Assembly (NCBI GenBank): GCA_041665485.1
Contig: JBAYIT010000002.1
Location: forward strand, 197,867-261,866
Source: Candidatus Shapirobacteria bacterium
Lineage (GTDB): Bacteria > Patescibacteriota > Microgenomatia > UBA12405
Length of the DNA: 64,000 bases
Direction of reading: 5' to 3'
Of this stretch, positions 3,859 to 33,821 are shown piece by piece (within the stretch, counting starts at the first letter, position 1; each line of letters begins with the position of its first letter). The translations under genes were made by a program, and so were the position numbers. The notes beneath the pieces were generated by a model. It worked only from the letters and a program-made list of their open reading frames with translations. It was not told where the DNA came from and made no database searches.

Positions 3859-5599
3859 AGTTTTTATGAGAATAAATCCTAATTATTGGATCAGTCCCTT
3901 TTTTAGCTTGACGCTCAACTATCACACCCGAAATACCATATGCTTGATTTCTGCTCTTTGCTATTTCCAAGAAATTTTTAACTCGGTGGGGTGGGCTAGC
4001 TTGATTGATAAAGGCATAATTAATTTCTTTACCCTGTCGTTTTGATTCTTCCATCGCATTAAAATTATGAGGGTTAGGGTTGTTTTTGCCAAAACTGGAG
4101 AGATCAATAAACTGCTCGTGATCAAAAGTCACTTTTTGCAGTTTATCTTCTGCTACGCCATCCTGTACTGCCTCTAATCTGGATGGATAGTATGAAACTA
4201 AAGCATTTTTCTTGTCTTCATATTTATACGCATCGCCGCTTACCGAAACTACTCCCTGCTTTGGGTTTTCTGTTTCTATCACAAATCCTTTACCTGTTAA
4301 ATTTTGAGAAAAAGGAGGAACGGTAACTTTTTCTTTACCTTGGGGATTTTGATTGTTACCCTTATTAAAGATGTTTGTTTTCTGATTCGAGTTGGTATTA
4401 TCGGAAGTTGCGGTTTGTTTACTATTATAATCACCACCCGAGTCTCTGTTTTGAAATAACGATCTGGTTTTATGTCCCAATTGACTGCTGATATTTCCAC
4501 CGATAAAGCCTCTGGAGAAATTACTAATGGGTGATGTTACCGCTTTAGATAATCCCCGATACGATATTGCTGCATACATGTTTCCAGACATAGCCGTCCA
4601 AACATCTCCAAACATTTTAGCCACCAGCACATTAACACTACCTAAAAAAAATAGGAAGCCGGTGTAAAAGAAAAGCATACCCACACTTGGACCTTTAGAA
4701 TTTAGAATGCTGGTAAAAATATCAGTAGCAATCGCAAACCCCAAAACAAAGGCAGGTTGCTCGATGAGAAAGGTAAACCACGATTTAAAAAAGGTATGCA
4801 CGATCCCTTCTGTTCGTTCTGACAGGGCAAAAGGGAGAATAATCGGATAAAGCACTCCCAAAAATAATAAAGAGGCGAAGCGAATTACAAACTGAAATCC
4901 TATGTAAATAAAGCCACATAGTAAAAAGACAAAGGTTAAAGCAAAAAGAAGAATTTGGACAATAAACTTACCAAGTGAATGGAAGATTCCACCCCGTAGC
5001 GAGATATCAAATGAGGGGATACCAAAAGTCTCTGACGGATTGTTATTTTCACTTATCGCTTCTTGAGATTTATTAAAGTAGTCATCTAAAAACCCGGTAA
5101 ACTTTTGGGTAGTTGAGATTTTATCAACCAAAAGATTGTTAAACTGGATACTGTAAGAAAGTACTGATGGTACGGTGACAAAAAGAACAATAACTATAAG
5201 TAAACGAACAAAAAAAGATTTTAGTTGTTGAGCATTATCAGAGCCGAGCTTTGTCATGGCAATACCGGCGATGATTATGGCAAGTATTGGGATAGCAATT
5301 TGATAGAACATATCTCTATATTTGGTAACTCCCGGAATTTCAGAGTTATCTTTTAGCTTGATGGTGTTAGCCAGCGGATCGGGAGTATAGAAAATAAAAC
5401 CACCTAAAAAGGAATCAAATCCGGCAATAAAGTTTTTTAGCAGTGAGATTATTGAAGACGGTTCGTTTTGAACAGTAAATTCATTTGTATACTGAATGAC
5501 GGGAGCAGGTGTTGGAGTCGGGGTTTCTTGAGCTAATACAATTTGTGAAGTTAAGAGAAAGGCAATTGTTGTAAAAGCGATTATTAATGCTATTTTCAT
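3836..5599 (-). CDS. Polytopic membrane protein with signal peptide; VirB6/TrbL-like candidate
   Basis: Signal peptide MKIALIIAFTTIAFLLTSQIVLA, PT-rich linker, multiple hydrophobic helices, C-terminal N/Q/S-rich tail; sits between pilin-like and VirB4-like genes. Confidence 0.4.
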   Translation of the reverse strand: MKIALIIAFTTIAFLLTSQIVLAQETPTPTPAPVIQYTNEFTVQNEPSSIISLLKNFIAGFDSFLGGFIFYTPDPLANTIKLKDNSEIPGVTKYRDMFYQIAIPILAIIIAGIAMTKLGSDNAQQLKSFFVRLLIVIVLFVTVPSVLSYSIQFNNLLVDKISTTQKFTGFLDDYFNKSQEAISENNNPSETFGIPSFDISLRGGIFHSLGKFIVQILLFALTFVFLLCGFIYIGFQFVIRFASLLFLGVLYPIILPFALSERTEGIVHTFFKSWFTFLIEQPAFVLGFAIATDIFTSILNSKGPSVGMLFFYTGFLFFLGSVNVLVAKMFGDVWTAMSGNMYAAISYRGLSKAVTSPISNFSRGFIGGNISSQLGHKTRSLFQNRDSGGDYNSKQTATSDNTNSNQKTNIFNKGNNQNPQGKEKVTVPPFSQNLTGKGFVIETENPKQGVVSVSGDAYKYEDKKNALVSYYPSRLEAVQDGVAEDKLQKVTFDHEQFIDLSSFGKNNPNPHNFNAMEESKRQGKEINYAFINQASPPHRVKNFLEIAKSRNQAYGISGVIVERQAKKGTDPIIRIYSHKNYEKRKNI

Positions 5600-5628
5600 A
5601 AGGCGGCAGAATGGACTTATGTTGGTCC

Positions 5629-5958
5629 TTAGTTAGTGCCACCGACAAACTGTTTCAAAATACTGGCCAAACTTGCCGCACCAAAGACTAGAAGACCTCC
5701 AATTAAAATATTAAAGATCCATCCTTTAAGTCGTGATTTTCTTTCGGTATCATCGCCACTGGCAATAAGAGCAATACCGAGTGCAGCAATTGAAAGCGCC
5801 ATAACAGGGAGTGAAAAATATTGAAGTGTTTTAACCACGCCCCATAACAACTGATCAAGACTAGTAAATTGGATGGGTTGAGCTGTATTATAAGCTGTAA
5901 TATCGTTTGCCATATTATTTGTGCGAATTATACTAAATAATATGAGGTATGTCAACAA
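5629..5958 (-). CDS. Small two-helix membrane protein; VirB2/TrbC pilin-like candidate
   Basis: 109 aa with two hydrophobic helices separated by a charged loop (SGDDTERKSRLK); first gene of the co-directional cluster. Confidence 0.4.
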   Translation of the reverse strand: MLTYLILFSIIRTNNMANDITAYNTAQPIQFTSLDQLLWGVVKTLQYFSLPVMALSIAALGIALIASGDDTERKSRLKGWIFNILIGGLLVFGAASLASILKQFVGGTN

Positions 5959-6089: not shown

Positions 6090-8117
6090 TTACTCGTATC
6101 TTAAGGCGTTAAGAGCAGAGATTTTGGTGGCCCGTCTGGCCGGATAAATACCGGTAATAATCCCGACCAAAAGTGAGAGAAAGATGATTACAAAAACAAA
6201 CGATAGTGGTAAATATGAGATATCGACAAACCCAATCCCTTTAAAGATCGAAAAAATGGAAATAACGATTCCGGCAAACTTGCCCAAGATAAATCCTAAA
6301 ATAATTCCCAAAATCCCTCCGAAAAATCCCATAATCATGGATTCTGTTAAAAATAATTCCTGTACCTCAGAAGATTTCATTCCCATTGCTTTCATTAACC
6401 CTACTTCTCGAGTTCGCTCCAGAAGCGATACGGTGAGGGTGTTAAACATGCCCAAAGCGGCTACTGACAAAGCTACCATACCCAGAAGCATCAAAAGAGT
6501 TCTGGCTGTCGCAAAAAGCGAGTTAATTTGTTCTACCGTATCGGCAACCGATCTGGTTACGTACCCCATAGCTTCAACTTGTTTTCTGACTTTGGGAAGG
6601 TCTGTCTGGTTATTAACCACTACTTTTACTTGTGAGTAGTTCGTAATTCCCAAAGTGCGAAGGTCAATAAAAGGCACGTAAAAAACCGGTGTTTTTTCCT
6701 CTGGCGTCACTCCAATGATGGTATATTCTGCTGGAGCCGATTCAATTTTTTGGGTGGGATCAGTCAGAAGATCGCCAACAACAACAAACGAAGCCGTAAA
6801 CTTTTTCCCGACTGCTTCACTTTCTTTTATCCCAAGAACCGATAACATGGCACGGTTGACCACCGCTTGCTTTCTTGCTTCAGCAGCTAATTCAATTGTT
6901 TTTGTTTCCGGGGTTGCAATAACGCCGGCTTCAGAGGCAATTTCTACCCAACCAACCATATCGTCAACTTTTTTACCTGAAGCAGTTGAGTTATTAGTCG
7001 TTACACCTAAAACCTGTGGTTCAGTCACATTTACACCAGAGATTTTTATATTTATCTCGGCAAAAAAGCCGGTCTTTTGCACCTGCTTATTATCCTCATC
7101 CCGTAAAACAACATATTTTCCCTCCTCACAATCTCCTTGTGTTTCTGAATCACATTTTTCCTCTTTCCAAAGAAGCACTGGCGCTTTGATCCATTTCCCC
7201 AATGATGATCCTTCTTCTGTATTGCCGAATTCACCTGCGCCGTAGTCTGATAAATAACTGTCACCCCAAACTTCTTCGCCCGCAGACGTTCCTTCAACAC
7301 GCTTGGTATACCCTAAAACCTTAGCGGTAGTTGATGGGTTTTCCCGCACCCTAATCCAGGAAGAAGCATCTACAGCATAGTCTAATTTCTGTATTGACTC
7401 ACCTTGTTTACCAATCCGGTTTTCCGTTGTTGCACCGGCCACCTGCCCGGTCTTTTCCAATAATTCTGCCGTCAGCTCATTGCTGTCAAAGATTTTTCCC
7501 TCAACTGGCTTGATGGCTGATTGTTGGAGGTAGTCGGTCGTCACTCCGTAAACTGCCATATCGGACTGCGAATTTTGATAGTTGACTCGGCCAACAACGG
7601 CAATCAAGGGTAGTGCCATGTTAATCGCCGATATATCTTTAAAGTTGGAAAGAGTTTTGTCGTCAATTTTTATTTTTCCTCCCGATTGAGTGGTTATATC
7701 GGCTTGTCTCATCTCCTCAAGTCGGGCCACCCGGGTAATCACCAGTTGTTGCAAACCATAACCAATGGATACCAAAAACACAATCGCTCCAATGCCAATC
7801 ATCATCCCGCCGATAGTAACTATAGTTCTCGTTTTTTTGGATTTCATATTTCGAACCGAAAGTTCAATCAGGTCAACTCTTGAAATCGTGTTGCTGCGAT
7901 GTTGGTCTAAAAGCTTTGTTGCTTTGACGTAAAATGATAGAAGTGGAGAGGTTAATCGTGCTTTTACGCCTTTGGGAAATAATTTCCAATTAGAAATCGT
8001 AATTATTCCATTTGCGGTCACATAAAGCATGATAAGCAAGGCAAACGTTACCGCATGCCACAAAGCACCGGTAAAGTTTAAAAAACTAAATTTAGATTTT
8101 GATTGGTAATTTTGCAT
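6090..8117 (-). CDS. MacB/FtsX-family ABC transporter permease with large extracytoplasmic domain (SH3b-like insert)
   Basis: N-terminal TM, roughly 400-aa periplasmic domain, C-terminal FtsX-type 3-TM bundle; paralog of 28705..30582. Confidence 0.75.
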   Translation of the reverse strand: MQNYQSKSKFSFLNFTGALWHAVTFALLIMLYVTANGIITISNWKLFPKGVKARLTSPLLSFYVKATKLLDQHRSNTISRVDLIELSVRNMKSKKTRTIVTIGGMMIGIGAIVFLVSIGYGLQQLVITRVARLEEMRQADITTQSGGKIKIDDKTLSNFKDISAINMALPLIAVVGRVNYQNSQSDMAVYGVTTDYLQQSAIKPVEGKIFDSNELTAELLEKTGQVAGATTENRIGKQGESIQKLDYAVDASSWIRVRENPSTTAKVLGYTKRVEGTSAGEEVWGDSYLSDYGAGEFGNTEEGSSLGKWIKAPVLLWKEEKCDSETQGDCEEGKYVVLRDEDNKQVQKTGFFAEINIKISGVNVTEPQVLGVTTNNSTASGKKVDDMVGWVEIASEAGVIATPETKTIELAAEARKQAVVNRAMLSVLGIKESEAVGKKFTASFVVVGDLLTDPTQKIESAPAEYTIIGVTPEEKTPVFYVPFIDLRTLGITNYSQVKVVVNNQTDLPKVRKQVEAMGYVTRSVADTVEQINSLFATARTLLMLLGMVALSVAALGMFNTLTVSLLERTREVGLMKAMGMKSSEVQELFLTESMIMGFFGGILGIILGFILGKFAGIVISIFSIFKGIGFVDISYLPLSFVFVIIFLSLLVGIITGIYPARRATKISALNALRYE

Positions 8118-8125
8118 TGTTATTT

Positions 8126-8884
8126 TTACGCTTGGATTTTTAAATCTTTACCTCGCTTACTTTTAATTTCACTCATTAACTCTTTTTGGTCTTCCTTGTC
8201 ATAGACACCAACAACACTCCCGTTAAACATCTTTACCGCCGTAATGGCATACTTTAAATACTCTAAATCATGGGTGACCATCAAAATGGTTTTTTTGTGT
8301 TCTTTATTTAACTCCGTTAACAGTTTCATTAGTCCTTGTCCTGATTCATAATCCAAGTTTCCGGTTGGTTCATCAGCAATAATTACTTCAGGATTGGTAA
8401 CCAAGGCCCTAGCTAGTGCTACCCGCTGTTGTTGGCCGCTTGATAATTCAGTTGGGATGTACGTTGCCCAATTGATCATTTCCACCGTTTCCAATATAAC
8501 TCGGGCTTTTTCCAAACTATGAAAACGGTCAAGTCCCAAAAGCTGCAGGGGGAAGGCGACGTTTTCGACAACCGTAAGCGACCTAATCCAGTTTGGCTGT
8601 TGATAGACGATGCCGGTATGCTCTTTTCTAAAATCCGACCGGTCATCTTCGGTTAATCCATCGTAGAGATTTTTACCGGAAAAATACACACTTCCCTTAG
8701 TTGGTGCTTCCAGCCCCAGCATGGTATGTAACAGCGTTGACTTACCACAACCGGATGGGCCAAAAATAATGACAAAGTCACCACTTTTAATTTCCAAAGA
8801 AATATCTTTAAGTACCGGTACATCTTGGTCGCCGATATGGAACGACTTGGCCACATTTTGTATTTTAAAAAGATAATCATTCAT
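8126..8884 (-). CDS. ABC transporter ATP-binding protein (MacB/LolD-like)
   Basis: Walker A GPSGCGKST, signature LSGGQQQRVALARAL, Walker B IIADEPTGNLD, H-loop VTHD. Confidence 0.9.
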   Translation of the reverse strand: MNDYLFKIQNVAKSFHIGDQDVPVLKDISLEIKSGDFVIIFGPSGCGKSTLLHTMLGLEAPTKGSVYFSGKNLYDGLTEDDRSDFRKEHTGIVYQQPNWIRSLTVVENVAFPLQLLGLDRFHSLEKARVILETVEMINWATYIPTELSSGQQQRVALARALVTNPEVIIADEPTGNLDYESGQGLMKLLTELNKEHKKTILMVTHDLEYLKYAITAVKMFNGSVVGVYDKEDQKELMSEIKSKRGKDLKIQA

Positions 8885-8886
8885 AG

Positions 8887-11800
8887 TTATTTATTAGTTC
8901 CTCCCATAAATCCAAAGGCTTGCTGCAGGTTAGTAATCACCAGATTTAAAGCGTTATCGGTGGCCTTAGGTGTAATCGTTACCGTGTCAATTGAGTTGCC
9001 GACATTACCCACTTTGTCTTTGGAAGTTGACCGCACATGATAAACTTTTGCTGGCGTTAAGTTTGAAATTATTACCAAGTGGTTTATGGTCAAGTTAGTA
9101 TCTTCTTGCGTTTTTTGTGAGTAGGTTGTGCCGGTACCTTCGCCAAACTCTACTTGAGAAGTTGCCGGTTCATCCGTATTCCAGGATACGATTAGTTGGG
9201 CGGTTGATTCCTGGGCGGTTGAAGCGGTGGGTGGGATAGTTGCACCTTCAACATGAAGCTCTAAAACCTGCGGCGGTCTGGTATCGGTTGCTGTTGTCAG
9301 CCGCTGCGAATCAGAAGCAGCTTCGTTGCCGATTTTATCGCGCCCTCTTACCACCATAATATAATTTGTTTGGGGCAAAAGTCCGCGGATAATCATTCGG
9401 TGGTCACCTTTCGTTAAAGCGACATTAACTTCATCGCGGGCGTCAGCGGAATTACCCTCAGGATAGTAGGTGACAATTGAAGAGACTTCGGTGTTGGTAA
9501 TCCACGTCACTAAAAGAGTTGATTGAGCGGTGTTGGCTACTTGCTGAATCCTGACATTGCTAATTTTTGGCCTTGGTAGGGTAGTAAAGTCCAAGATTGT
9601 GCCTTCGTATTCGCTTGATTCGCTGTCAAAGGTATTGATTTTATAGTAATACTTTGTCCCATCCAAAAGTCCTGTGAGTTCGGCTGTGTAAGTGGTCTCA
9701 GTAGTTGAGGTTGAAATTTCTTTAGCTCCGCCAAAACTGGTGGTGGTGCCATAGTATATTTTGATTTTTGAGGCGTTGTTGGAAGTGAACTGGATAATAG
9801 CGGTAGTTAAACCAATGTTTTTAGCGCTGACGTCTTTAACGGTTGGCGCCGAAGAGGTAGAAAAGCTTTTTTCTTCACTGGCTCCAGTATTACCGTCTTC
9901 ATCTGTCCATTTGGTTTTATAGTAATAGGTTGTTCCCGGATTTAAGCCGGTCAACTGGATTGAATGCGAAGAAACCTGAGAGGAGTTGCTGGGCTCAACC
10001 GTATTATAACTACCGCTGGTTGTGCCGTACTGCACTTTGGAATCCGAGCTTCTGGAAGTTGTCCAGGTAATTGTGGCTTTTTTTGTGGTAATTGATCCGA
10101 CGTCTGGTCCGGTTGAGAGACTAGGGGCTGATGTCCATTTACCTGTAGGAGTGATTGAAACTGCATTAGATCCCGATGATTGGGCGTTAGCGCCGTCTTT
10201 GGCGTAAATCTTGTAGTAGTATTTGGCCGATGTAGGAGTGTTATCTACATAAGAAAGGCCCGAAGTTGTTCCGGTTTGAGCAAAAGTTGTGCCGTCAGTT
10301 GAGCGATAAACAAGATAGGTCAGATTTCCCGCACCTTTATAAGTTGGCGCCGTCCAAGTCAGGGTCACATTCCATTGGGATTGAGATTTAATCGAAGAAT
10401 CGGAAGCCACCAGATTCCCGGGATTGTCAGGATCAGTCGAGTCAAGAGTAAATGACGCCGAAATATAGTTTGAAGGCGAATAATTGGGAGTTGACGCATT
10501 ATCAATTGCCACAACATTGACGGTATTTGTGCCTTTGTTCACACCGGGCAAGGCTGCGGCCGAAACCGTTCGTGATGTTCCGTTGTCAATATAGGTAGTG
10601 GCGTTTCCTTGTAAAGTCGCCAAGGTTGAAGGCGGCGAAGTGTTGATCATATAATAATAATGGGCCACAGTTTTACCATTGGTCGGTGTTGCCTCTGGCC
10701 AGGATAAAGCATATGAATTAGAAGTTGAAGTTGATGGGGTTACGGTTACAGTCGCTAACCCGTCAAACGCCGGAGCTGCCCCGCCGTAATTGAGATTACA
10801 GGTTCGGATTGTCGCATCAGTTGAAATATTACCGGCAATATCGACTGTCCGGAAATAAATGATGTTATTGCCAGAATCAATTCCGTGCGGCAAACTATCA
10901 GACTTACCGTCCTGGGCCTGGGTTAATGTCCGCGAAGTGGCACTTGTGGGAACGTAATTATTGATACCAACCAGTGCTTCCGTGGTTGTCCCCAGCCATG
11001 TACCAGTTGTAGTATTAATCTGGTATTGCCAACCTAATATTCCCGATCCAACCACTTCGGTAACCGTATCAGAGGATGCCACGCTGTCAGTTGTCGGCCA
11101 GGAAAAGTTCATATCAGCAACATTGGAAAAACTACCCGAAGCGCAGGAAATATAGGCAGTATTTAAAGGCCGAGTATCGTCATACCTGAATTTAAAAGTA
11201 GCCGAGTTTCCGGCAAAAATATTACCTGATTTATCCACTACCTTGACAGCAAAAAGATAAGACTTAGGTGAGGTTGACAGAGGCGTTGTAAAATGACTTG
11301 CTAAATCAATACTGGTTCCGGTCACAATAAATTGGCAGGTCGTGCCGTCTGTTGGCACCGGACTGGTACTTAAAAGTCCCTTGGCTGTTGCCGGATCATT
11401 ATCTGGGATATCATCTCCGTTATTATCAAGGCTTAATGACAAACAATAGCCTTTAACTCCACTTTCGTTAGGATTATCGGCTCCGGCTGTCCAGGAAAAG
11501 TAAGGAGATGGGTTATTCGTCCAACCGTTTGAAGCCACCGTCGTTCCGCCGTTTGACCGAGACATTAAAATTGTAGAGGCATTACTTCCCCCGTTTGCAA
11601 CGTTTGGCGGGTTGGTGTCGGTGGTAAAACCAACTGATATATGAGGCAGTTTTGGTACATCAGCGCTTTCCGAGTTAAAAATAGCCTTAACTGAAATTTT
11701 ATGCGAAGTGGCAATAAGTGACGCATGTTGCATAATCGGGTTTTGTGCGTCCATTAGTTGTGCTGCCGTATTACCATCCGTTGCTCCGGCTACCACCCAA

Positions 11801-13767
11801 GAACTGCCGTTCCAATATTTCCAAGTGTTGCCGGACTCACAAGCTGTTCCCTGCCCGACACTTTTATTATCACTTCCAGCCGCGCCCAAATCATCGGTAC
11901 ATAATTGGTATTTGATGGTGGAGTTGCCAGTATGAGTGGCATCAGCCGTACAAACTGAACCAACCAGAGTTCCTTCACACAAATTGTCCCAGGTATTAAC
12001 CAGACCATTAAAATAACCGTCTTTATTGAAAACACTGTAGGTGCCTTGTTTTATCAAAGTCAGCTCATCAACTTTAACGGATTTGCCTCTTTTGACCAAA
12101 ACTCCGGCATCAACTGCGCTGTTAACACCGGTAACCGTGCCGGTTAATTTGTACCAGTTGCCGGTAACCGAAGTGTATGTGGGGCTGGTGATGGTGTTGC
12201 CGCCGTAATAAAGAGTAGCCACGGTGTCATCAACCACTCCACCAACCGGATCGGAACTCAAGTTATAGACATATGCTGAAATGGTGTAAGGAGCAGTATC
12301 GCCAACATTAACTGATTGATAGAGTTTGCCATCGACAATAGAGCCTATAGTAATTGTATTTCCACCGGCGCCGGGAAACCCGGAACTAGATGAGAAAGAT
12401 TGAGAGATTGCTACGGGACCACTGGCGCAGCGGAAACCAAGACTGTAGGCCGTACCCGTGGGCGCATAGATCAGATGCAAGGCGAACACACCCGCGCCCG
12501 TGGTATCGTTCCAAGCGCTGCCGCGTAAGAACGCGAAATTAGTGCCGTTTGTTCGAGCCCCCATATAATATTTACCCATGCCTTGAGCAGAGCCCCATGC
12601 AGTATTAGATGGCCTTAAAAGATCATAAGCTAAAGTACCGTAGTTACCGGCGCTGTTAAAGTACGGCCAATCAACATAAGCAGCAGTCTGAGCACTATCA
12701 GGTTTATTTTGTCCTAAAATTGAATCATTTGTCCACTCCCAGACGTTACCGGCCATATCCCAAATAATTTGTCCATTTGATAGAGTAAAAGTTCTTTTTT
12801 GTTTGCCTGAAGTATTATCGCAAACTGTTGCCCCTGTGGTTGTTTTATAACAGGCATAGGTGTCGTTGGTACTGGCATCAAGCGCCAGCCCCGTATCACC
12901 GTTTATGGCTTCGCTTACATTATCATTGTGGCCAGAGGCTAGCATGCCGGTTCCCGGCGTATTGCCGCATGGATAAACGCCATAACCGCCAACCGCAGTG
13001 CACCAGTTAGCGCTTTGACCTTCCGCATTGCGGGCAACTGTCATCCATTCGTTATTCGTAATCAGATGAGGGGCAGTAACTCCGACTCCCAATGACATAT
13101 TCGAACAGTAGCTTTCCGCATCGTTGGCGGTGCTGTCGTTTTGAGGAATATAGGCGATAGGAAAACCTTGGGCAGTTGAAACAACATGTTTTGCCCCAGT
13201 ACTATTACTACAGCTACATCCAGCTCCATTATTTCGGTACGTTCCGTATTGATCTCCCGTGCCATCTGCACCTGCCGAGCCATTACAGACATTACCTGAA
13301 GCGACCGTATTTCCCACATTGTCGCCGTCAGTGTCGCATTTGGCTTCATATTTCATTGCCAAAAAATTACCAGTAGGAGGATTATAGGTTGCGTTGGCGG
13401 GTACTTCTACCCAGCCGGAAGGGGGAACCGCGGCCACACTCCAAGAATCAGCATTATCTGTAAAGGCCGGATTAGCGAATTTATTAGCGCCAACTGTTCC
13501 GCCCGTTGGCTGTGCACCAGTATCATTAACCGTGGTTAAACTGGTCGTGTAGTCTGAAGCGGTCGCGCTTGAGAATGTCCATTCTTTTTTGCTGTCATTT
13601 AGGGCAAATACATTGGGAAATAGTTCTGATAAAGCCAGATAGGAACCGCCAAAAAGTCCGATTGTAATAAACAATATAGCCAACAGGTTAAACTGAAACC
13701 TGGAAAAATGAAATCGCGGCTCAAAGAAATACTTTTTAATGTTATGAATTAGGTTCATGTTGGTCAA
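8887..13767 (-). CDS. Giant (1626 aa) membrane-anchored surface protein: N-terminal signal-anchor, FGE-sulfatase/C-type-lectin-fold domain carrying the DGR variable region, long FN3/Ig-like repeat stalk; DGR target protein
   Basis: FGE/CLec motifs (NVWEWT, RGSAWN, GFRCAS); VR at codons about 411-450; C-terminal roughly 500 aa highly similar to the 23526..28031 protein. Confidence 0.8.
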   Translation of the reverse strand: MTNMNLIHNIKKYFFEPRFHFSRFQFNLLAILFITIGLFGGSYLALSELFPNVFALNDSKKEWTFSSATASDYTTSLTTVNDTGAQPTGGTVGANKFANPAFTDNADSWSVAAVPPSGWVEVPANATYNPPTGNFLAMKYEAKCDTDGDNVGNTVASGNVCNGSAGADGTGDQYGTYRNNGAGCSCSNSTGAKHVVSTAQGFPIAYIPQNDSTANDAESYCSNMSLGVGVTAPHLITNNEWMTVARNAEGQSANWCTAVGGYGVYPCGNTPGTGMLASGHNDNVSEAINGDTGLALDASTNDTYACYKTTTGATVCDNTSGKQKRTFTLSNGQIIWDMAGNVWEWTNDSILGQNKPDSAQTAAYVDWPYFNSAGNYGTLAYDLLRPSNTAWGSAQGMGKYYMGARTNGTNFAFLRGSAWNDTTGAGVFALHLIYAPTGTAYSLGFRCASGPVAISQSFSSSSGFPGAGGNTITIGSIVDGKLYQSVNVGDTAPYTISAYVYNLSSDPVGGVVDDTVATLYYGGNTITSPTYTSVTGNWYKLTGTVTGVNSAVDAGVLVKRGKSVKVDELTLIKQGTYSVFNKDGYFNGLVNTWDNLCEGTLVGSVCTADATHTGNSTIKYQLCTDDLGAAGSDNKSVGQGTACESGNTWKYWNGSSWVVAGATDGNTAAQLMDAQNPIMQHASLIATSHKISVKAIFNSESADVPKLPHISVGFTTDTNPPNVANGGSNASTILMSRSNGGTTVASNGWTNNPSPYFSWTAGADNPNESGVKGYCLSLSLDNNGDDIPDNDPATAKGLLSTSPVPTDGTTCQFIVTGTSIDLASHFTTPLSTSPKSYLFAVKVVDKSGNIFAGNSATFKFRYDDTRPLNTAYISCASGSFSNVADMNFSWPTTDSVASSDTVTEVVGSGILGWQYQINTTTGTWLGTTTEALVGINNYVPTSATSRTLTQAQDGKSDSLPHGIDSGNNIIYFRTVDIAGNISTDATIRTCNLNYGGAAPAFDGLATVTVTPSTSTSNSYALSWPEATPTNGKTVAHYYYMINTSPPSTLATLQGNATTYIDNGTSRTVSAAALPGVNKGTNTVNVVAIDNASTPNYSPSNYISASFTLDSTDPDNPGNLVASDSSIKSQSQWNVTLTWTAPTYKGAGNLTYLVYRSTDGTTFAQTGTTSGLSYVDNTPTSAKYYYKIYAKDGANAQSSGSNAVSITPTGKWTSAPSLSTGPDVGSITTKKATITWTTSRSSDSKVQYGTTSGSYNTVEPSNSSQVSSHSIQLTGLNPGTTYYYKTKWTDEDGNTGASEEKSFSTSSAPTVKDVSAKNIGLTTAIIQFTSNNASKIKIYYGTTTSFGGAKEISTSTTETTYTAELTGLLDGTKYYYKINTFDSESSEYEGTILDFTTLPRPKISNVRIQQVANTAQSTLLVTWITNTEVSSIVTYYPEGNSADARDEVNVALTKGDHRMIIRGLLPQTNYIMVVRGRDKIGNEAASDSQRLTTATDTRPPQVLELHVEGATIPPTASTAQESTAQLIVSWNTDEPATSQVEFGEGTGTTYSQKTQEDTNLTINHLVIISNLTPAKVYHVRSTSKDKVGNVGNSIDTVTITPKATDNALNLVITNLQQAFGFMGGTNK
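12364..12385 (-). promoter_or_regulatory. GC-rich hairpin (ggcgccgggaaacccgg) about 35 nt 3' of VR on the coding strand; candidate DGR target-recognition hairpin
   Basis: Stem ccggg/cccgg with aaa loop in otherwise AT-rich DNA; absent next to TR. Confidence 0.4.
12420..12535 (-). repeat. DGR variable repeat (VR), 116 bp, inside the giant surface protein gene
   Basis: 99 of 116 identity to TR at 15381..15496; all 17 mismatches are where TR has A on the coding (minus) strand; encodes ...APTGTAYSLGFRCAS. Confidence 0.85.
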
Positions 13768-15167: not shown

Positions 15168-15380
15168 ATTGATTCAACAAAAAGCGGGCCGGTTGTTAAG
15201 CCGGCCCACATACACTTAATCAGGTACCTATTTACCTTATCCCTGGTGTTTAATACAAGAATAAGAATACAGGCTTTATGTTCTCCCGCCATAAGCAGGA
15301 CAGAGAAAACCTGGTGATCGTTTGGACACCGAGTATATATCCTTGGACATATACCACTCCATCCTGGCGCATTATTTGGT

Positions 15381-15496
15381 CACTGGCGCAGCGGAAACCA
15401 ATATTGTTGTTCGTATTCGTGGGCGCATTGTTCAGATTCAAGGCGAACACACCCGCGTCTGTGGTATTGTTCCAATTGCTGCCGCGTTAGAACGCG
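15381..15496 (-). repeat. DGR template repeat (TR), 116 bp
   Basis: Homologous to VR at 12420..12535; Asn (AAY)-rich when read in the VR frame (NAPTNTNNNIGFRCAS); lies between the Avd-like gene and the RT. Confidence 0.85.
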
Positions 15497-15561
15497 TTAC
15501 GGTTTTCCCTAAGTATTTAGAATAACAGAATTTAACTTTTTATGCAGGGTTATCTGGCAGC

Positions 15562-15903
15562 TTAGTTTAGGTTTGTCCAACCGTAGAGGATTTTTCCTAT
15601 CTCATTTATTTTTTCAGCAGCATGTTTGTATTGGATAATACTCATGAAGTGAAGATCTTTTGTTAAACGGATAAGAATTCTTAGTTCATCCAGTTGATCG
15701 GACATTTGAAGTTGAATAACCTTTCTGGTGTTGTCCCTAATTTTATTAGCTTGAACCGAAGAAAGTAAAATCTTTAATCCCAACTCTTCCAAATGTTTCC
15801 CCAAAACCAGCCGATGACTTTTAGGAATCCTATTTATCAATGGATACAGCCAAAGGAGAAAGTCGTAAATTTTCTGGAAAATGATAAGTTTTTCGGCACC
15901 CAT
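15562..15903 (-). CDS. avd: Avd-like DGR accessory protein (four-helix-bundle family)
   Basis: 113 aa; KIYDFLLWLYPLINRIPKSHRLVLGKHLEE pattern resembles Avd/PF05635-type proteins; position immediately 5' of TR-RT. Confidence 0.5.
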   Translation of the reverse strand: MGAEKLIIFQKIYDFLLWLYPLINRIPKSHRLVLGKHLEELGLKILLSSVQANKIRDNTRKVIQLQMSDQLDELRILIRLTKDLHFMSIIQYKHAAEKINEIGKILYGWTNLN

Positions 15904-17664: not shown

Positions 17665-18426
17665 CTAATTGATTTCTGCTTTTTTGAACAAGCTGATTTC
17701 CATACCATTTTGATCAATTTGATCTGTAGTAGTTGTGTAGAAATTGGCATTGATACCGCCTTCATCTCTGATATGTCTATAGATATGTTTTTCTATAAAT
17801 GCTCTAGTTAAATCATTCCTACAGATAAAGACGATATTAGTAGGTCTGTCTTCATCATTTTCAAAGTACTCCATAAATTTGTTAATTCTGCCTCTAATGG
17901 CATAGCGAGGCATCTTTTCGCTAAATATCTCCCCGACAAAATGCTCTAAGTGTTTTTCAGCTTTATATACATAGGCAAAATCAGGGAGTAATACCCTGAT
18001 AACTCCGTCTATAGGAAAGTCTTGCTGGGTATAAAATTTAAAATCAGCATGGTCTAAAGTATCAATGTTTAAGAGTTTGAGGTAAATATCCGCGATCAAA
18101 ATTGACTTATCAATAAAGCCGTTTGATCGTCGTTTTTCCTGACGAAATTTTTTTAGTAAGGAAACATTTATATCTTTTAGAGTTTTGAGATATTTAATCG
18201 AGTTAGTTGTTAAGTAGTATTTAGCCGGTAGTGTATTTTTCTGATAAGAGTTGTCGTAGATACGGCCAACATAGTTTTTTGCAGTTAAATCTTTTAGCCA
18301 GACATTGATATTTCGGTGATCTTTATTTTTAAGTAGTTTTTGAATTTGAATTCTATTTAAGAAGCGGAATCTATATAACAAGAGAATAATCTCTTTTTGT
18401 TTATTAGTTATATTAGGTATAGTCAT
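17665..18426 (-). CDS. Replication-relaxation family protein (plasmid/ICE-associated, N-terminal wHTH)
   Basis: N-terminal NKQKEIILLLYRFRFLNRIQIQKLL wHTH-like segment and about 250 aa length typical of PF13814-like proteins; adjacent to the coupling ATPase. Confidence 0.45.
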   Translation of the reverse strand: MTIPNITNKQKEIILLLYRFRFLNRIQIQKLLKNKDHRNINVWLKDLTAKNYVGRIYDNSYQKNTLPAKYYLTTNSIKYLKTLKDINVSLLKKFRQEKRRSNGFIDKSILIADIYLKLLNIDTLDHADFKFYTQQDFPIDGVIRVLLPDFAYVYKAEKHLEHFVGEIFSEKMPRYAIRGRINKFMEYFENDEDRPTNIVFICRNDLTRAFIEKHIYRHIRDEGGINANFYTTTTDQIDQNGMEISLFKKAEIN

Positions 18427-18578
18427 ATTAATTTTTAGTAACCTACCTGTATCCTCCCTTTATTTAGGGAGGAGTGTGTTCTCTCCTTATATATAAGGAT
18501 ATAGAGACTACAGAATATTTATTTATTGCCTTTATATAGCGCTAATATTATATCCTATTATCCCAGCCTGCTGGGATA

Positions 18579-21248
18579 TCAAAGTGCCTTGATTTGTTCA
18601 AACTTATTCTCATTACCCGCGATAGTTTTCTTTGTTTTGAGAGTTACTGGTACACCTTGTTTAATCCCTGTTTTAGTGCCGTACAATGATCTTGAGTTGC
18701 TAATAGCTTTTTCCTTTGTGGCATTACTTCCGGTAATTGTAAAATCGTCAATCTCACCAGTAAAAGAATCTTGAGGTTCGAGGGCGTTTATTTTGATATA
18801 GAAATGATATGAGGGTAGGTTGCCAATTTGGCCTTCTTCTACTTGGGGCGCAAAAATTGGCAGGATTTTACTTTCATCCTTAGGGCTTGAGGTTCTAAAA
18901 GAGATAATTGTTCCGCTATTTCCAATGATCGTATCCAATAGATCGTCATCTAACTGGACAGTGTTTTGATGGGCTAGAATGGCACATAGTCGGTATTTTC
19001 GAGCCTCAGATAACACTTGAGCAAAGGTGGTTGTAGCAAAGTTTTGGAATTCATCAACATATAGGAAAAAGTCGGTTCGGTTACTTTCCAATAGATTAAT
19101 TCTTCGAAAAGCAGCCAGTTCCAGTTTGGCAATTATTAAGCTACCTAAAAAGAAAGAATTGTCCTCACCGATTTTTCCCTTGGACAGATCACATAAAAGT
19201 ATCTTCTTATTATCCATAATATCGTTAAAATCCAGCTTAGTTTTGGGTTGATTCAAAATATTACGCGTTAGGGTAGTGGTTAAGAATCGACCCAATTTAT
19301 TGGTAATGGGTGAAATTTGTTCCGCTCTCTGGTAACTTCCGGCAGCCCCAAACTCATTTTTCCAAAAGGTCTTTAAGACTTCATCAGTTAATTCATTTAC
19401 AACTCGTTTACGGTATTTGGTATCAGTTAGAAGTTCATATATGGTAAATAGAGTCGGTGTTTCAAGTTCTAAGGCAGTTAAAATGACATTTCTTAATATA
19501 TGCTCCATTCGGGGACCGGAATATCTGGCTTCGTATAGCTTATGAAATACGGATATAAGACTTGAGGTAATAAAATCTTTTTCCCGCTCTCTTTCAACTG
19601 GTGGTAAATCTTTAGGTAATTCCAGAAAATTTAGACCAATCGGATATTCGATATCATAGGGATTAAAGTAAACCACATCTTCGATTCGGTCTTTGGGGAT
19701 TATTTCCAGAAGTCTTTTTGATAAATCTCCATGAGGATCTATCACTGCCAAACCTTTACCATGGCCTAAATCTTGATAAATCATTTGTAGAAGTAAGGTA
19801 GTTTTACCTGTACCAGTTGCTCCGATCATGTAGGTATGGCGTCTTCGTTCTTCCAGTGTTTGACCAATAACTGTTTCTGTCTCGCCGTATTTGTTTTTGG
19901 CAAAAGTAATGTCAAAACCAATATCGGCTTTTTTTAATGATAAAGGAGGTGGTAATTGAGGACTTTTTATTTTTTGTAAATCTTCTGTTTGCGTAGTTGT
20001 AGTAAAAGGAAAGTGATACAAAGAAGAAAGTTCAGTTACCGATAAAATCGAGCTATTTGTAAGTACAGATAGGCGGTCAGTTAAAAGAATTTTGAAAATG
20101 TTGTCAAAAACCTTATTATGAAAAATCAAAGCTGATGAATCCTTAACCTGAAACGACTGATTGGGAGTGGCAAAAGTGTCAAAAGACGAGGTAAGACCGC
20201 TTAAACGTCTCTTATTGTTTTCTTGATCTTTAGTTTGGGAAATAAACCGAATGGTAACATCAAATAACGGCTGGTTAATCTTATCTTGAATGGTTTGATA
20301 AAGCTGTTGTTTTGGTAAACCAATTTCGTTTAAGCGTTTATTATTACCACCATCAAAGACCCACCAAGCGAGAAGTTGGGCATGATTATCTTTATCGAGA
20401 AACCAATCGATAAGAGTAAATGGTGAAAGAATTAAAACCAAAAATAGTCTAAAAATTAGATTAATAGCATCATAAAGTAAATTAACAACTGAAAGATTCA
20501 AACCGTTTCTAATTTTGTGTGAGATATCAGTGTTTCCCATAAATAACTCGCTAATTTCCCTGTTGTGGTGAGTAATTCTCGGATAGGTATTTTCTTGAAT
20601 CGGTGAACAGATGAATTGAAGAGAAACTAGCTCATTCTCAAGCAGTTTAGTCATGTGGGCTGTCACATATGCAATTGGATCATACTCATTAAGAGATGCT
20701 TGGCTTTGAAGCGGATATACATAAGAGCTTTTTAAACTAATTTCTTTGATACCAATAGGAAAACTAGTTAAACTATCATTTAAATAATCGGTAGTTTCTC
20801 TGATCTCAACTCCCGGAAGATAAGCTAACAGTGTTTTTTTAACAACGGATTTATCTTTATCTGAAATTCGTAGAATATACCTAATACCCAGTTGTTTGGT
20901 GGATACTAATTCAAAAGTTAGTTTTCTTTTAAAACCTATTATCCGCTCAATAAATGAATTTTGTTTTCCCAGCGAATGAAATAGGGTATAAAGCTCATTG
21001 GTTGATAAGGGGCTTTTTAAGGTTTTATCTGTTGGTCTGACTTCTAGGTATGCATAGCTTTCTGTAATTGCTTTTTTTATCCTGATATAGAGCAAAATGA
21101 CAGATACAACTCCTAAAAAGGAAAATATCGTTATCAGTAATACGGGAAGTGCAGATAAATATTGGCTAATTGGTGCGGTAAATAACCATGAGAGATAGCT
21201 TGGAAAAACTTTGGAATAATCTATAGTGGCAATGTTGCTGTCCATCAT
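18579..21248 (-). CDS. Type IV coupling protein (VirD4/TraG/TraD-like ATPase) with N-terminal TM helices
   Basis: Two N-terminal TM helices; Walker A GATGTGKTT followed by IDPHGDL; Walker B-like LYVDEFQNF; 889 aa. Confidence 0.7.
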   Translation of the reverse strand: MMDSNIATIDYSKVFPSYLSWLFTAPISQYLSALPVLLITIFSFLGVVSVILLYIRIKKAITESYAYLEVRPTDKTLKSPLSTNELYTLFHSLGKQNSFIERIIGFKRKLTFELVSTKQLGIRYILRISDKDKSVVKKTLLAYLPGVEIRETTDYLNDSLTSFPIGIKEISLKSSYVYPLQSQASLNEYDPIAYVTAHMTKLLENELVSLQFICSPIQENTYPRITHHNREISELFMGNTDISHKIRNGLNLSVVNLLYDAINLIFRLFLVLILSPFTLIDWFLDKDNHAQLLAWWVFDGGNNKRLNEIGLPKQQLYQTIQDKINQPLFDVTIRFISQTKDQENNKRRLSGLTSSFDTFATPNQSFQVKDSSALIFHNKVFDNIFKILLTDRLSVLTNSSILSVTELSSLYHFPFTTTTQTEDLQKIKSPQLPPPLSLKKADIGFDITFAKNKYGETETVIGQTLEERRRHTYMIGATGTGKTTLLLQMIYQDLGHGKGLAVIDPHGDLSKRLLEIIPKDRIEDVVYFNPYDIEYPIGLNFLELPKDLPPVEREREKDFITSSLISVFHKLYEARYSGPRMEHILRNVILTALELETPTLFTIYELLTDTKYRKRVVNELTDEVLKTFWKNEFGAAGSYQRAEQISPITNKLGRFLTTTLTRNILNQPKTKLDFNDIMDNKKILLCDLSKGKIGEDNSFFLGSLIIAKLELAAFRRINLLESNRTDFFLYVDEFQNFATTTFAQVLSEARKYRLCAILAHQNTVQLDDDLLDTIIGNSGTIISFRTSSPKDESKILPIFAPQVEEGQIGNLPSYHFYIKINALEPQDSFTGEIDDFTITGSNATKEKAISNSRSLYGTKTGIKQGVPVTLKTKKTIAGNENKFEQIKAL

Positions 21249-21347
21249 AATTTAATAAGACTTGGCAGAACAATCTTTCCCGTTAAATTAGTGTGGAGTA
21301 TACCAAATCCTATAAGAATATTAAAGCGACGTAGTGCATAAATCCAC

Positions 21348-21695: not shown

Positions 21696-21697
21696 AT

Positions 21698-28031: not shown

Positions 28032-28034
28032 TTT

Positions 28035-33818: not shown

Positions 33819-33821
33819 ATA

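Follow-up and report, generated by a model that had tools for sequence, protein, structure and literature searches.

Most targets of diversity-generating retroelements (DGRs) carry their variable region (VR) at the C-terminus (PMC5758913, PMC8144416, PMC11661182), as an earlier note on this DNA had stated, and the usual explanation is that the retrohoming signals need non-coding DNA (PMC8144416; compare PMC3240598). The locus analyzed here, from a Candidatus Shapirobacteria (CPR) genome, raises the question of how a VR can lie deep inside the gene of a giant surface protein, and what a protein diversified in this way would do for its host. The window, by which we mean the whole 64-kb stretch of DNA that was analyzed, contains the following parts of a DGR and its target:

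8887..13767, (-) strand: DGR target gene, a single open frame of 1626 codons encoding a secreted multi-domain surface protein of 1626 aa
12419..12538, (-) strand: VR, codons 411-450, with all TR/VR mismatches at TR adenines; hotspot of differences from the contig L116
14010..15167, (-) strand: DGR reverse transcriptase (RT), 385 aa, Pfam RVT_1 5.9e-17, YMDD motif seen in the translation
15380..15499, (-) strand: TR, 120 nt with 34 adenines, between avd and the RT gene, a direct repeat with the VR
15562..15903, (-) strand: avd, accessory variability determinant, 113 aa, Pfam bAvd PF22296 (E = 1.2e-21), GenBank 'diversity-generating retroelement protein Avd'

The target is entered in GenBank as MFA6518616.1, a 'fibronectin type III domain-containing protein' with an ATG start at 13758. 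The cassette, with an RT adjoining the TR and an accessory protein of the bAvd family, lies immediately upstream in the order avd-TR-RT-target. The direct repeat was initially detected as the pair 12420-12535 / 15381-15496 and refined to a VR at 12419-12538 and a TR at 15380-15499. Over these 120 nt the two copies differ at 19 positions; all 19 coincide with the 34 TR adenines, and none of the 86 non-A positions is changed. These results bear out the proposal that the VR is N-proximal, at about codons 411-450 of the 1626-codon frame. VR and TR have ...TTCCGCTGCGCCAGTG in common at the 3' end and diverge afterwards. The VR ends at codon 450, with 1176 residues left before the stop codon, and no second VR was found elsewhere in the 64-kb window. 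With roughly 30 mutable adenines among the 34 in the TR, the theoretical repertoire amounts to ~4^30 DNA variants. In the TR, moreover, the triplet that matches VR codon 414, a conserved Leu codon, is an in-frame TAA, so that many retrohoming events could inactivate the target gene.

A second contig, from another sample (L116) and reached via the RT cluster of metagenome contigs, allowed a comparison between near-identical strains. It is 99.85% identical to the window over 12,737 nt, with 19 differing bases, and 16 of these lie inside the VR, every one at a TR-adenine position (binomial P about 7e-31). The two TRs are identical, and the L116 contig breaks off inside the VR. Since the differences concentrate at the mutable sites, diversification by the DGR is, as judged from these two contigs, ongoing or recent. 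A Logan contig with the same RT stops short of the VR and is uninformative on it, and an exact 31-nt scan of metagenome contigs for the window's post-VR sequence gave no match.

The same architecture was found in 17 species-level genomes and 32 metagenome contigs; the loci are phylogenetically related, and locus counts are thus not independent. A-only TR/VR pairs are present in 17 genome loci, with 9-18 mismatches each and the VR at about aa 330-450, and 11 of these loci have intact genes (ORFs of 1360-1560 aa). The RT of the window is 46-74% identical to the RTs of orthologous loci, compared to 34-45% for the RTs of short-target CPR DGRs. These data bear directly on whether the long frame could be an artefact, either an assembly chimera or the read-through of a short target into its neighbour, or a decaying relic with a dead DGR. 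Such a reading would fit the in-frame TAA of the TR, the contig breaks at the VR, and the stops or frameshifts in or near the VR of related MAG loci (L001, L027, L029, L030, L039, L065, and L089). However, when mixed populations are assembled, a hypervariable site is expected to show breaks and frameshifts. At least 11 independent genomes, as well as many metagenome contigs, have the architecture uninterrupted, the junction is the same in two assemblies made independently from near-identical strains, and the differences between strains cluster at the TR-adenine sites of the VR. A chimera is rejected because many independent contigs keep the architecture, and we regard this explanation as a whole as very improbable. 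[quoted passage not shown]

C-terminal to the export signal, three regions of the protein were recognized:

12415..13467, (-) strand: FGE-sulfatase / C-type-lectin fold domain with the VR, ~aa 101-451 (Pfam FGE-sulfatase 24.2 bits, AF2, Foldseek)
12040..12366, (-) strand: CBM-like beta-sandwich domain, ~aa 468-576, directly past the linker (AF2 model 1, Foldseek)
8980..11577, (-) strand: FN3/Ig-like stalk of ~9 beta-sandwich domains, ~aa 731-1596 (Pfam, AF2 model 2, Foldseek)

From N- to C-terminus, the layout is thus a lectin domain carrying the VR, a CBM-like domain, a poorly modelled stretch (aa 577-730), ~9 FN3/Ig-like domains, and a conserved C-terminal helix. The VR region belongs to the FGE/C-type-lectin fold, as had been proposed from the sequence. 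The Pfam FGE-sulfatase match is weak (aa 213-356, 24.2 bits vs a cutoff of 23.3); the AlphaFold (AF2) head model is confident over aa 101-576, with pLDDT mostly above 80 in the lectin domain and 89-96 over the VR, and its best PDB matches by Foldseek, TaqVP (5vf4), TvpA (2y3c), and Mtd (1yu4), are all DGR variable proteins. More than 80 short homologues terminate at the equivalent of aa 446-452 of the target. The description of everything after the VR as ~1150 aa of FN3/Ig repeats holds for the stalk of ~9 domains and fails for its beginning, which consists of the CBM-like sandwich, matched by Foldseek to CBM16, CBM35, CBM4, and CBM6, and of the poorly modelled stretch. The tail model (aa 690-1626; pLDDT 89) shows only beta structure, as sandwich domains in a chain, up to a helix at the end; Foldseek matched it to titin, gp130, contactin, and fibronectin chains, and Pfam places Pur_ac_phosph_N and fn3 at aa 1215-1600.

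Two elements follow the VR within the codons that link the lectin and CBM-like domains:

12388..12425, (-) strand: IMH-like 38-nt block CCAGTGGTCCCGTAGCAATCTCTCAATCTTTCTCATCT, overlapping the final 7 nt of the VR and translated as A-S-G-P-V-A-I-S-Q-S-F-S-S
12371..12383, (-) strand: short GC hairpin CCGGG-TTT-CCCGG in linker codons, weak in the window and stronger in relatives

The 38-nt block is near-invariant in nucleotides across 20 loci. At codons 448-460 the synonymous codon identity (identical residues) reaches 0.84, compared to a median of 0.39 over 231 blocks, and is the highest of any block in the gene; in the DGR-less orthologs L015, L018, and L020 the block has diverged. In the 32 metagenome contigs the motif is in frame, typically with ~390-465 codons before it and 1117-1146 after it where contig and frame are intact. 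A similar motif, GTAGC.ATCT..ATCT, is intergenic, past the stop codon, in several short CPR targets with a C-terminal VR. As to the hairpin, 11 of 21 loci have, at offset 42-45, a GC-rich stem that pairs perfectly over 5 bp or more, compared to 0.7% of background windows; the stems are of at least 6 different sequences, so that about half of the loci have a post-VR GC hairpin with covarying stems whose stem and loop lengths vary by locus. A clear hairpin was not found in five DGR-bearing loci. The claim rests on this cross-locus comparison because the window's own post-VR DNA, with a stem of just 5 bp, folds no better than shuffles (z = 0.26). BPP-1 is known to require an IMH and a hairpin located 4-34 bp past the VR (PMC3240598), and canonical DGRs share with this locus the succession of a GC-rich VR 3' end, an IMH-like sequence, and a GC hairpin. 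By analogy with that system, we infer that the 38-nt block and the hairpin are the retrohoming signals (IMH, hairpin/cruciform) that usually are intergenic behind a C-terminal VR. They would be tolerated in the gene as a Ser/Gly-rich linker joining the two domains, and an internal VR would be possible because the signals themselves are translated.

Internal VRs are already on record, since 2017, as rare exceptions. Wu et al. 2017/2018 (PMC5758913) described a minority of DGRs with such VRs, which map to clades of the RT tree, and pointed out that the IMH must then overlap coding sequence. Those VRs belong mostly to the 'Ig1/Ig2' classes, with single CLec cases, and at least some Ig-linked VRs were later re-read as phage tail fibres by Roux et al. 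(PMC8144416); here, in contrast, FGE-type CLec VRs in a giant cellular protein are found throughout a CPR clade. What the codon comparison adds to PMC5758913 is that it shows how the coding constraint appears to be met, through frozen synonymous sites in the linker. Canonical DGR variable proteins (Mtd of Bordetella phage BPP-1, TvpA of Treponema denticola, TaqVP of Thermus aquaticus, LdtA of Legionella) likewise have Avd, RT, and TR, adenine-specific changes, and the VR in a CLec/FGE fold. Unlike them, the present target has an internal VR, coding cis elements, a position downstream of the RT with the TR 2961 nt from the VR, and a protein ~4-5 times larger.

The two ends of the protein and the genes that follow it bear on its orientation at the cell surface:

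13603..13767, (-) strand: N-terminal export signal, aa 1-55, with a basic n-region, hydrophobic aa 26-47, and then PNVFA/LND, the slash marking the boundary (hydrophobicity scan)
8890..8979, (-) strand: conserved C-terminal module TITPKATDNALNLVITNLQQAFGFMGGTNK at the extreme C-terminus, with a predicted helix at ~aa 1606-1618
8126..8884, (-) strand: ABC ATPase of LolD/FtsE/MacB type (Pfam ABC_tran 7e-35; best NCBIfam models LolD, DevA, FtsE)
6090..8117, (-) strand: FtsX/MacB-family permease (Pfam FtsX and MacB_PCD; TM scan), with a large extracytoplasmic domain at ~aa 129-532

The N-terminus had been read in the earlier note as a signal-anchor that would keep the variable domain close to the membrane. 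The hydrophobic segment is present, and its core of 21 residues (aa 26-47, KD 2.18) is long enough for a membrane anchor; the membrane-proximal head is less supported. A boundary of the form P-x-[VI]-F-A / [LA]-N-D-T is conserved after the segment in orthologs, presenting a canonical -3/-1 site with Pro ahead, and strong conservation restarts right behind it. At the same position the orthologs L009 and L011 have short classical signal peptides, and the variant L016 has an extra C-terminal TM helix with an RRKR tail. The segment is therefore best read, on sequence comparison, as a predicted cleaved Sec signal peptide, which would place the lectin head at a free distal end; the diversified head is probably distal on the fibre. 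With a type II topology, the signal-anchor would stay uncleaved and the lectin membrane-adjacent, the FN3 stalk would extend outward, and the C-terminal helix would form a tip that docks, for example, on a VirB2-like pilus or a partner cell. The core does have the length of a TM helix, and F-x-PR-[FW]-HFSR-x-QFN before it and GSYL within it are conserved in many orthologs and weakly in the paralog, to a degree that is unusual for signal peptides. However, besides the conserved site and the signal peptides of L009 and L011, the TM anchor of L016 would mean anchoring at both ends, and a hypervariable ligand face under a stalk of ~40 nm (an estimate for nine FN3-size domains) is hard to rationalise, so that we judge this topology unlikely.

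The arrangement that we favour, in which the lectin head would form the free distal tip, resembles that of Gram-positive adhesins. MSCRAMM-type adhesins and PrgB of pCF10 have a signal peptide, an N-terminal ligand-binding head, a stalk of beta-sandwich repeats, and a C-terminal attachment module, and the target has the same order of parts. It differs from them in having no LPXTG/sortase signal and no similarity to PrgB, its attachment module being a short amphipathic helix linked to an ABC pair. The C-terminal module is kept at the very C-terminus of more than 100 family fragments, and its helix (KD 0.44) is too weakly hydrophobic for a TM helix. No NCBIfam model matches the target or its C-terminal motif. 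Some other modes of surface display were rejected. The target N-terminus has neither a PF07963 match nor a G/F-T-L-I-E-like prepilin cleavage/methylation motif, which many of the short homologues do carry (N_methyl PF07963), and a pilin-like target of the CPR N_methyl plus FGE-sulfatase type is excluded. A sortase-anchored adhesin is excluded by a C-terminus (...TPKATDNALNLVITNLQQAFGFMGGTNK) with no LPXTG, its low hydrophobicity, and no match to an NCBIfam sorting domain. An adhesin of type I secretion (RTX-type) such as LapA or SiiE is excluded by the separate LolD/FtsE-like ATPase and FtsX/MacB permease, the N-terminal signal, and the lack of RTX matches.

The ABC ATPase gene comes next after the giant gene in every locus whose contig continues. 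Behind proteins with an FGFLGG C-terminus an ABC match is always found, and an FtsX match too where the contig continues; both are missing after variants without FGFLGG. The pair thus comprises an ATPase and an FtsX-family permease with a large extracytoplasmic domain, encoded with their partner. FtsEX-PcsB/EnvC, LolCDE, and MacB are mechanotransmission ABC systems with extracellular partners. They share with the present pair the separate ATPase, a permease that combines FtsX and MacB_PCD with a large extracytoplasmic domain, and obligate genetic coupling to one extracellular protein; their partners are a hydrolase activator, a lipoprotein, or a toxin, whereas here the putative partner is a fibre of 1500-1600 aa. 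The end of the fibre nearest to the cell would be the C-terminal helix, which the co-encoded pair would hold or process, and the pair is perhaps the anchor of the C-terminal motif, through a putative contact between helix and permease. An attachment by the C-terminus, possibly through the ABC system, is the alternative that the earlier note had raised, and it is the one we favour.

The window contains a second gene set of this kind:

23526..30582, (+) strand: non-diversified paralogous operon encoding a giant protein, an ABC ATPase, and an FtsX permease

The giant protein of this operon (23526..28031(+), 1501 aa) has a DUF2341 head and its own ABC ATPase (28035-28742) and FtsX permease (28705-30582). 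As anticipated, the C-terminal part is shared: the paralog aligns to aa 687-1623 of the target at 52% identity, visibly higher over the last ~430 aa (estimate about 85%), and the two permeases are 62% identical. A literature search yielded no report describing CPR giant FN3 proteins with ABC transporters.

Beyond what the earlier note had covered (the conserved clade, the active DGR, and the translated cis-elements are also new to it), the module lies in a type IV secretion/ICE-like cluster:

147..5958, (-) strand: T4SS genes downstream, namely TrbC/VirB2-like pilin 5629-5958, TrbL/VirB6 3836-5599, VirB4 N-terminal part 3046-3858, VirB4/TraG ATPase 914-3049, and M23 peptidase 147-917
17665..23293, strand (.): mobility genes upstream, namely Replic_Relax 17665-18426(-), type IV coupling protein (T4CP) 18579-21248(-), and large serine recombinase 21698-23230(+)

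The ICE-type genes of the window thus comprise VirB4, VirB6, a VirB2-like pilin, T4CP, a Replic_Relax protein, and the serine recombinase, which overlaps tRNA-Leu (23209-23293(-)). Among related loci, 8 keep the order of T4CP and Relax genes, and L013 has a recombinase with 70% identity to that of the window. A search with the tRNA-Leu/recombinase junction for att-like direct repeats returned only other tRNA genes, with no att repeat inside the window; the far end lies beyond position 1. Since the module sits in such a cluster in the window and ~8 relatives, the fibre most likely contacts host or recipient cells, with a specificity that the DGR would shift. A literature search found nothing connecting a DGR to a CPR type IV secretion cluster.

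It is possible, although we hold it to be the less probable case, that the fibre is adaptive cargo and not part of the T4SS, that is, a general adhesin, a nutrient- or particle-binding fibre, or a phage decoy that travels with mobile elements, the ABC pair serving export or turnover. The core set Avd-TR-RT-giant-ABC-FtsX occurs in L003 and L007 with no T4SS genes detected around it, as in several other loci with enough upstream sequence, and neither the non-diversified paralog nor the DGR-less orthologs L014, L015, L018, and L020 have T4SS neighbours. In Bacteroides, moreover, transfer does not need the DGR-diversified adhesin that an ICE carries (bioRxiv 10.1101/2024.11.15.621889), so that location in an ICE is no proof of a role in conjugation, and most patescibacterial T4SSs are thought to be non-conjugative (PMC12102498). 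Against cargo stands the co-orientation of the module between T4CP/relaxase-like genes and VirB2/VirB6/VirB4 in the window and, with the same T4SS gene order, in L005, L008, L012, L013, and L029, and no other adhesin has so far been found in patescibacterial T4SS clusters (PMC12102498).

The reading as a contact fibre has parallels in other mobile elements. Genes for PrgB-type adhesins sit within T4SS operons. The shufflon of the IncI plasmid R64 makes variants of the PilV tip adhesin by site-specific recombination among a few cassettes. It is a functional analogy, a mobile element diversifying its own cell-contact adhesin, here by retroelement mutagenesis instead; R64 pili are cited in PMC12102498, and PrgB homologues were not found in Patescibacteria (PMC12102498). 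ICE-borne DGRs, those of Legionella LdtA (cited in PMC5758913) and of the type V pilus tip adhesins of Bacteroides (bioRxiv 10.1101/2024.11.15.621889), are alike in that a DGR with conjugation/integration genes diversifies a surface adhesin-like protein. Their targets differ in having C-terminal VRs, being diderm lipoproteins or pilins, lacking a MacB-type ABC pair, and not lying inside a T4SS operon. A bolder proposal, which we advance tentatively and regard as rather doubtful in its full form, is that CPR bacteria have in Avd-TR-RT-giant protein-ABC-FtsX a 'retargetable grappling fibre' that is complete in itself and moves horizontally. After Sec export the fibre would be held by an anchor of a kind not described before, in which its C-terminal amphipathic helix docks on a MacB/FtsX-type ABC system that perhaps also actuates it mechanically; the DGR would rewrite the tip lectin so that the T4SS or mobile element engages new cells, and the fibre would be the adhesin missing from patescibacterial T4SS clusters.

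Together, these results suggest that this clade satisfies the constraint imposed by retrohoming signals inside the gene, with the signals translated as an inter-domain linker. If the signals can be coding, a fibre attached by its C-terminus could carry a DGR-diversified head at its tip, and the targets of engineered DGRs could lie elsewhere than at a C-terminus. Through the conserved C-terminal motif, a giant surface protein is linked to an ABC machine of the MacB/FtsX type. Ultra-small CPR bacteria are believed to rely on type IV secretion clusters; in the single CPR bacterium examined for this, epibiotic growth requires T4SS genes (PMC10633639). For these clusters, the locus offers a specific candidate as contact or adhesin component.

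The target gene occupies positions 8887-13767 of the minus strand as a single unbroken ORF of 1626 codons, and the exact protein, counted from the ATG at 13758, is present in GenBank as MFA6518616.1 ("fibronectin type III domain-containing protein") on a 335-kb contig of a Candidatus Shapirobacteria MAG (Microgenomates, CPR/Patescibacteria). Three parts of a diversity-generating retroelement (DGR) lie directly upstream on the same strand, and the fourth lies inside the gene:

15562-15903, minus strand, bAvd protein (PF22296, 1e-21)
15380-15499, minus strand, template repeat (TR), 120 nt
14010-15167, minus strand, RVT_1 reverse transcriptase (RT) with YMDD
12419-12538, minus strand, variable region (VR), the partner of the TR, ORF codons 411-450

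TR and VR differ at 19 positions, all of them among the 34 TR adenines, while none of the 86 non-adenine positions differs, and no second VR matching the TR was found within the 64-kb window. Both the coordinates and the codon numbers of the earlier note proved correct. The TR carries an in-frame TAA (15486-15488) where VR codon 414 (12525-12527) reads TTA, the Leu of a conserved F-L-R-G motif, so that a faithful copy of the TR would end the protein at residue 413. The same TAA was seen in the TRs of the related loci L065 and L089; the L011 TR has a TAG at another codon, and the L027 VR has a TAG at VR codon 414. Stops at an internal VR would cut off the whole stalk, and they may represent an on/off switch or decay of the TR. 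Between a relaxase-like gene and avd (16023-16853 and 17107-17616), we also observed a 276-aa protein that has a TM segment at its N-terminus and matched no family, together with, on the opposite strand, a DUF2958 protein; both are kept in the near-identical contig L116.

In Pfam searches, aa 213-356 matched FGE-sulfatase at a borderline score, and FN3-type domains were recognized at aa 1215-1600. The AlphaFold model covering aa 101-717, built with 103 homologues, was confident over aa 101-576 (VR pLDDT 89-96), and the best PDB matches of the head were the DGR variable proteins TaqVP (5vf4), TvpA (2y3c), and Mtd (1yu4), together with FGE-like enzymes. The outcome named in the earlier note as a refutation, a VR outside a CLec fold, therefore did not occur: domain search and model agree with the earlier reading that the VR, at codons 411-450 of 1626, lies within an FGE/CLec fold. 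Beyond the VR, the domain at about aa 468-576 resembled carbohydrate-binding modules CBM16, CBM35, CBM4, and CBM6 in structure comparison; aa 577-730 were poorly modelled. A second model (aa 690-1626, pLDDT 89) showed an all-beta chain of about nine sandwich domains matching the FN3/Ig chains of titin, gp130, contactin, and fibronectin, with a short helix at the end (about aa 1606-1618).

The observation of an N-proximal VR is correct and significant well beyond chance. More than 80 of 120 head homologues stop at the equivalent of aa 446-452 ("...GFRCA[SR]" followed by a stop); such proteins are the ordinary, short DGR targets of CPR bacteria, and many of them begin with a prepilin N-terminus. 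VRs have been described as C-terminal in "the great majority" of cases, with few internal exceptions, mostly Ig classes and single CLec cases (PMC5758913); this placement has been called near-universal and ascribed to cis-acting elements having to be intergenic (PMC8144416), and 87% of VRs lie at the gene end (PMC11661182). Homologues and literature together bear out the rarity of the internal arrangement, which has precedents, and the target is a DGR family member that fails one customary feature, the C-terminal VR.

We scanned one genome per species for matches to both the head and the post-VR domains, which recovered about 20 loci. In 11 of them the ORF is intact, measures 1360-1560 aa, and has its GFRC motif near aa 330-420; 17 had both Avd and RT upstream, along with a TR/VR pair whose 9-18 mismatches were all at TR adenines. 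The clade loci share the order avd-TR-RT-target, whereas short-target DGRs are arranged target-avd-RT, and RT identity to that of the window was 46-74% in the clade compared to 34-45% in short-target DGRs. A motif scan of metagenome contigs added 32 with the motif in frame, typically with about 390-465 codons before it and 1117-1146 after it where contig and frame were intact. The L001 ortholog is broken in two by a frameshift (L001 11300-11400); stops or frameshifts in or just after the VR were seen in L027, L029, L030, L039, L065, and L089, and L030 has a TGA at a conserved Trp codon in TR and VR alike. Such lesions in related MAG loci could stem from faulty assembly of a hypervariable site or from true inactivation. 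Among database homologues sharing the N-terminus, many "short" ones, for example P0013 (the L089 contig), may be fragments of giant genes of this kind.

Some related proteins have other architectures. The phage-like contig L002 encodes, next to an SU10 portal protein, a 616-aa protein (9943-11793) composed of a lectin head, an in-frame IMH-like motif (IMH, the retrohoming signal 3' of the VR), and a CBM-like domain, and in L007 an SU10 major capsid gene (19668-20837) lies downstream of the DGR/giant-protein module; the head, linker, and CBM unit may be of phage origin. Proteins of 1090 and 1254 aa in L022 (2249-5521) and L023 (6477-10241) have an internal FGE-type lectin and ends that by eye resemble DUF1566-type lectin domains (...GGGY.DWYLPS..EL...), so each may contain two lectin-fold domains.

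Direct evidence of DGR activity came from contig L116, found through the 90% cluster of the window's RT by an RT protein from a different JGI sample. It aligns without gaps to window positions 25167-12431 (12,737 nt) with 19 mismatches, of which 16 fall inside the VR (12441-12516), every one at a TR-adenine position (binomial P about 7e-31 for the concentration in the VR alone). The TRs are identical, and only 3 sites differ in the 12.6 kb outside the VR. Both L116 and another JGI fragment of the target gene end inside the VR, as expected from a site that is heterogeneous within the population. These results are direct evidence of mutagenic retrohoming, ongoing or very recent, at the internal VR.

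Retrohoming in BPP-1 requires an IMH located at the VR 3' end and, 4-34 bp downstream, a GC-rich hairpin/cruciform in which stem structure matters and stem sequence does not (PMC3240598). In the window, VR and TR are in common up to ...TTCCGCTGCGCCAGTG and diverge beyond. Across 20 loci with only 35-55% identity in the flanking protein domains, the 38 nt that come next in the target, CCAGTG(A/G)TCCCGTAGCAATCTCTCAATCTTTCTCATCT, are near-invariant. We aligned 11 DGR-bearing orthologues by codon: at codons 448-460 (A-S-D-P-V-A-I-S-Q-S-F-S-S), 84% of identical-residue pairs used the same codon, compared to a median of 39% over 231 equally conserved 13-codon blocks, and all top twelve blocks of the gene overlapped this spot; third positions are free to vary in invariant Gly and Arg codons close by. 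Both the nucleotides of the block and its peptide have been lost from the orthologues that have no DGR (L015, L018, and L020). A similar GTAGC.ATCT...ATCT motif, compared by eye, follows the stop of several ordinary short targets in intergenic DNA, indicating a signal common to short-target CPR DGRs that is translated in the giant target. Perfect GC-rich hairpins (stem 5-9 bp, loop 3-4 nt) occur 42-45 nt past the anchor in 11 of 21 loci and in only 0.7% of same-size windows elsewhere in the same genes, although these loci are related, so that neither hairpin nor conservation counts are independent events. At least 6 distinct stems were found (CCGGG/CCCGG, CTGGCC/GGCCAG, CCGGC/GCCGG, GGCCGC/GCGGCC, CCGGTCGC/GCGACCGG, and GCCGCGCCG/CGGCGCGGC), and the stretch codes for a Ser/Gly/Arg/Ala-rich linker joining the lectin and CBM domains. 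The window's own hairpin (12371-12383) has a stem of only 5 bp, its post-VR region folded no better than shuffles, and a clear hairpin is missing in five DGR-bearing loci. We infer that the 38-nt block and the hairpin act as IMH and cruciform.

The last 27 residues or so, TITPKAT[D/E]NAL[N/D]LVI.NL..[A/V]FGFLGG plus 1-4 residues, are conserved as the extreme C-terminal end in more than 100 fragments of the family (Microgenomates, WWE3, and Dojkabacteria), and contain neither a TM helix (KD 0.44) nor LPXTG. Every family member with an FGFLGG-type ending is followed by a LolD/FtsE-like ATPase and, wherever the contig continues, by an FtsX/MacB permease whose extracytoplasmic domain spans about 400 aa. 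Where an internal-VR protein ends differently (L002, L016, L019, L022, L023, and L098), neither was seen. In L016 (2486-6568; same signal, lectin head, internal VR, and DGR), a classical TM helix and RRKR replace the motif, and no ABC or FtsX match was found in 3.4 kb downstream. This co-occurrence suggests a joint role of the motif and the ABC pair, most likely anchoring or processing. The window contains a second such operon in divergent orientation:

23526-30582, paralogous operon: giant protein, ABC ATPase, FtsX permease
23526-28031, plus strand, paralog, 1501 aa, DUF2341 head in place of the lectin, followed by its own ABC pair

Alignment over target aa 687-1623 confirmed a C-terminal module shared with this non-diversified paralog, as the earlier note had claimed, and the two permeases are 62% identical. 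Overall identity of the giant proteins is 52%, with the last 430 aa or so far closer (estimate about 85%); gene conversion may explain this, as may a strong constraint imposed by the ABC partner. About 1 kb past this operon, the opposite strand encodes a 748-aa subtilase (Peptidase_S8) and an AAA ATPase (31572-34862).

The hydrophobic segment at aa 26-47, which had been described as a signal-anchor, was confirmed by a hydrophobicity scan. After the segment, orthologues conserve a Pro-x-[Val/Ile]-Phe-Ala | [Leu/Ala]-Asn-Asp-Thr boundary, and strong conservation restarts exactly behind it; in the same position, L011 (MYRIVAGLLLFLLLVVLVSRVLA|LNDT) and L009 carry signal peptides of the short, textbook kind, and L016 keeps the N-terminal segment alongside its C-terminal TM helix. 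These features make an uncleaved anchor unlikely and point to a cleaved Sec signal. Cleavage would put the diversified head at the free end, the layout of C-terminally attached Gram-positive adhesins, so that the alternative in the earlier note, a C-terminally anchored protein, is favoured.

The co-oriented avd-TR-RT-giant-ABC-FtsX module is set between two groups of type IV secretion system (T4SS)/mobility genes, with a recombinase beyond:

21698-23230, large serine recombinase, overlapping tRNA-Leu
18579-21248, upstream, coupling protein
17665-18426, upstream, Replic_Relax protein
5629-5958, downstream, VirB2-like pilin
3836-5599, downstream, VirB6
3046-3858 and 914-3049, downstream, split VirB4
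after the split VirB4, downstream, M23 peptidase

VirB4 appears to be split: the 270-aa VirB4-like ORF corresponds to the N-terminal portion of models for ICE VirB4 and TrsD, and it overlaps the beginning of a 711-aa TraG/VirB4 P-loop protein. The recombinase 3' end overlaps tRNA-Leu(gag), with tRNA-Val adjoining (21698-23293), which suggests that a tRNA gene was the integration site of the T4SS/DGR element; a search of the window found no att-like repeat, and the element would have its other end past position 1. The full gene order recurs in L005, L008, L012, L013 (recombinase 70% identical), and L029, and its upstream part in L027, L030, and L089. The core module lies amid unrelated genes in L003 and L007, and no T4SS neighbours were seen for the DGR-less orthologues L014, L015, L018, and L020 or for the paralog. 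No adhesin was reported in a survey of T4SS clusters from Patescibacteria (PMC12102498), and a Saccharibacterium needs its T4SS genes to grow epibiotically (PMC10633639), which makes a contact role for the fibre attractive. A diversified adhesin borne on a Bacteroides ICE is, however, dispensable for transfer (bioRxiv 10.1101/2024.11.15.621889), and a role of the giant protein as a T4SS adhesin is a tentative proposal, less likely than not.

Together, these results reveal a conserved, active clade of internal-VR targets, in which the cis signals appear to be translated as a linker and a giant fibre is coupled to an ABC pair of the MacB/FtsX type, often within a type IV secretion/ICE-like cluster.
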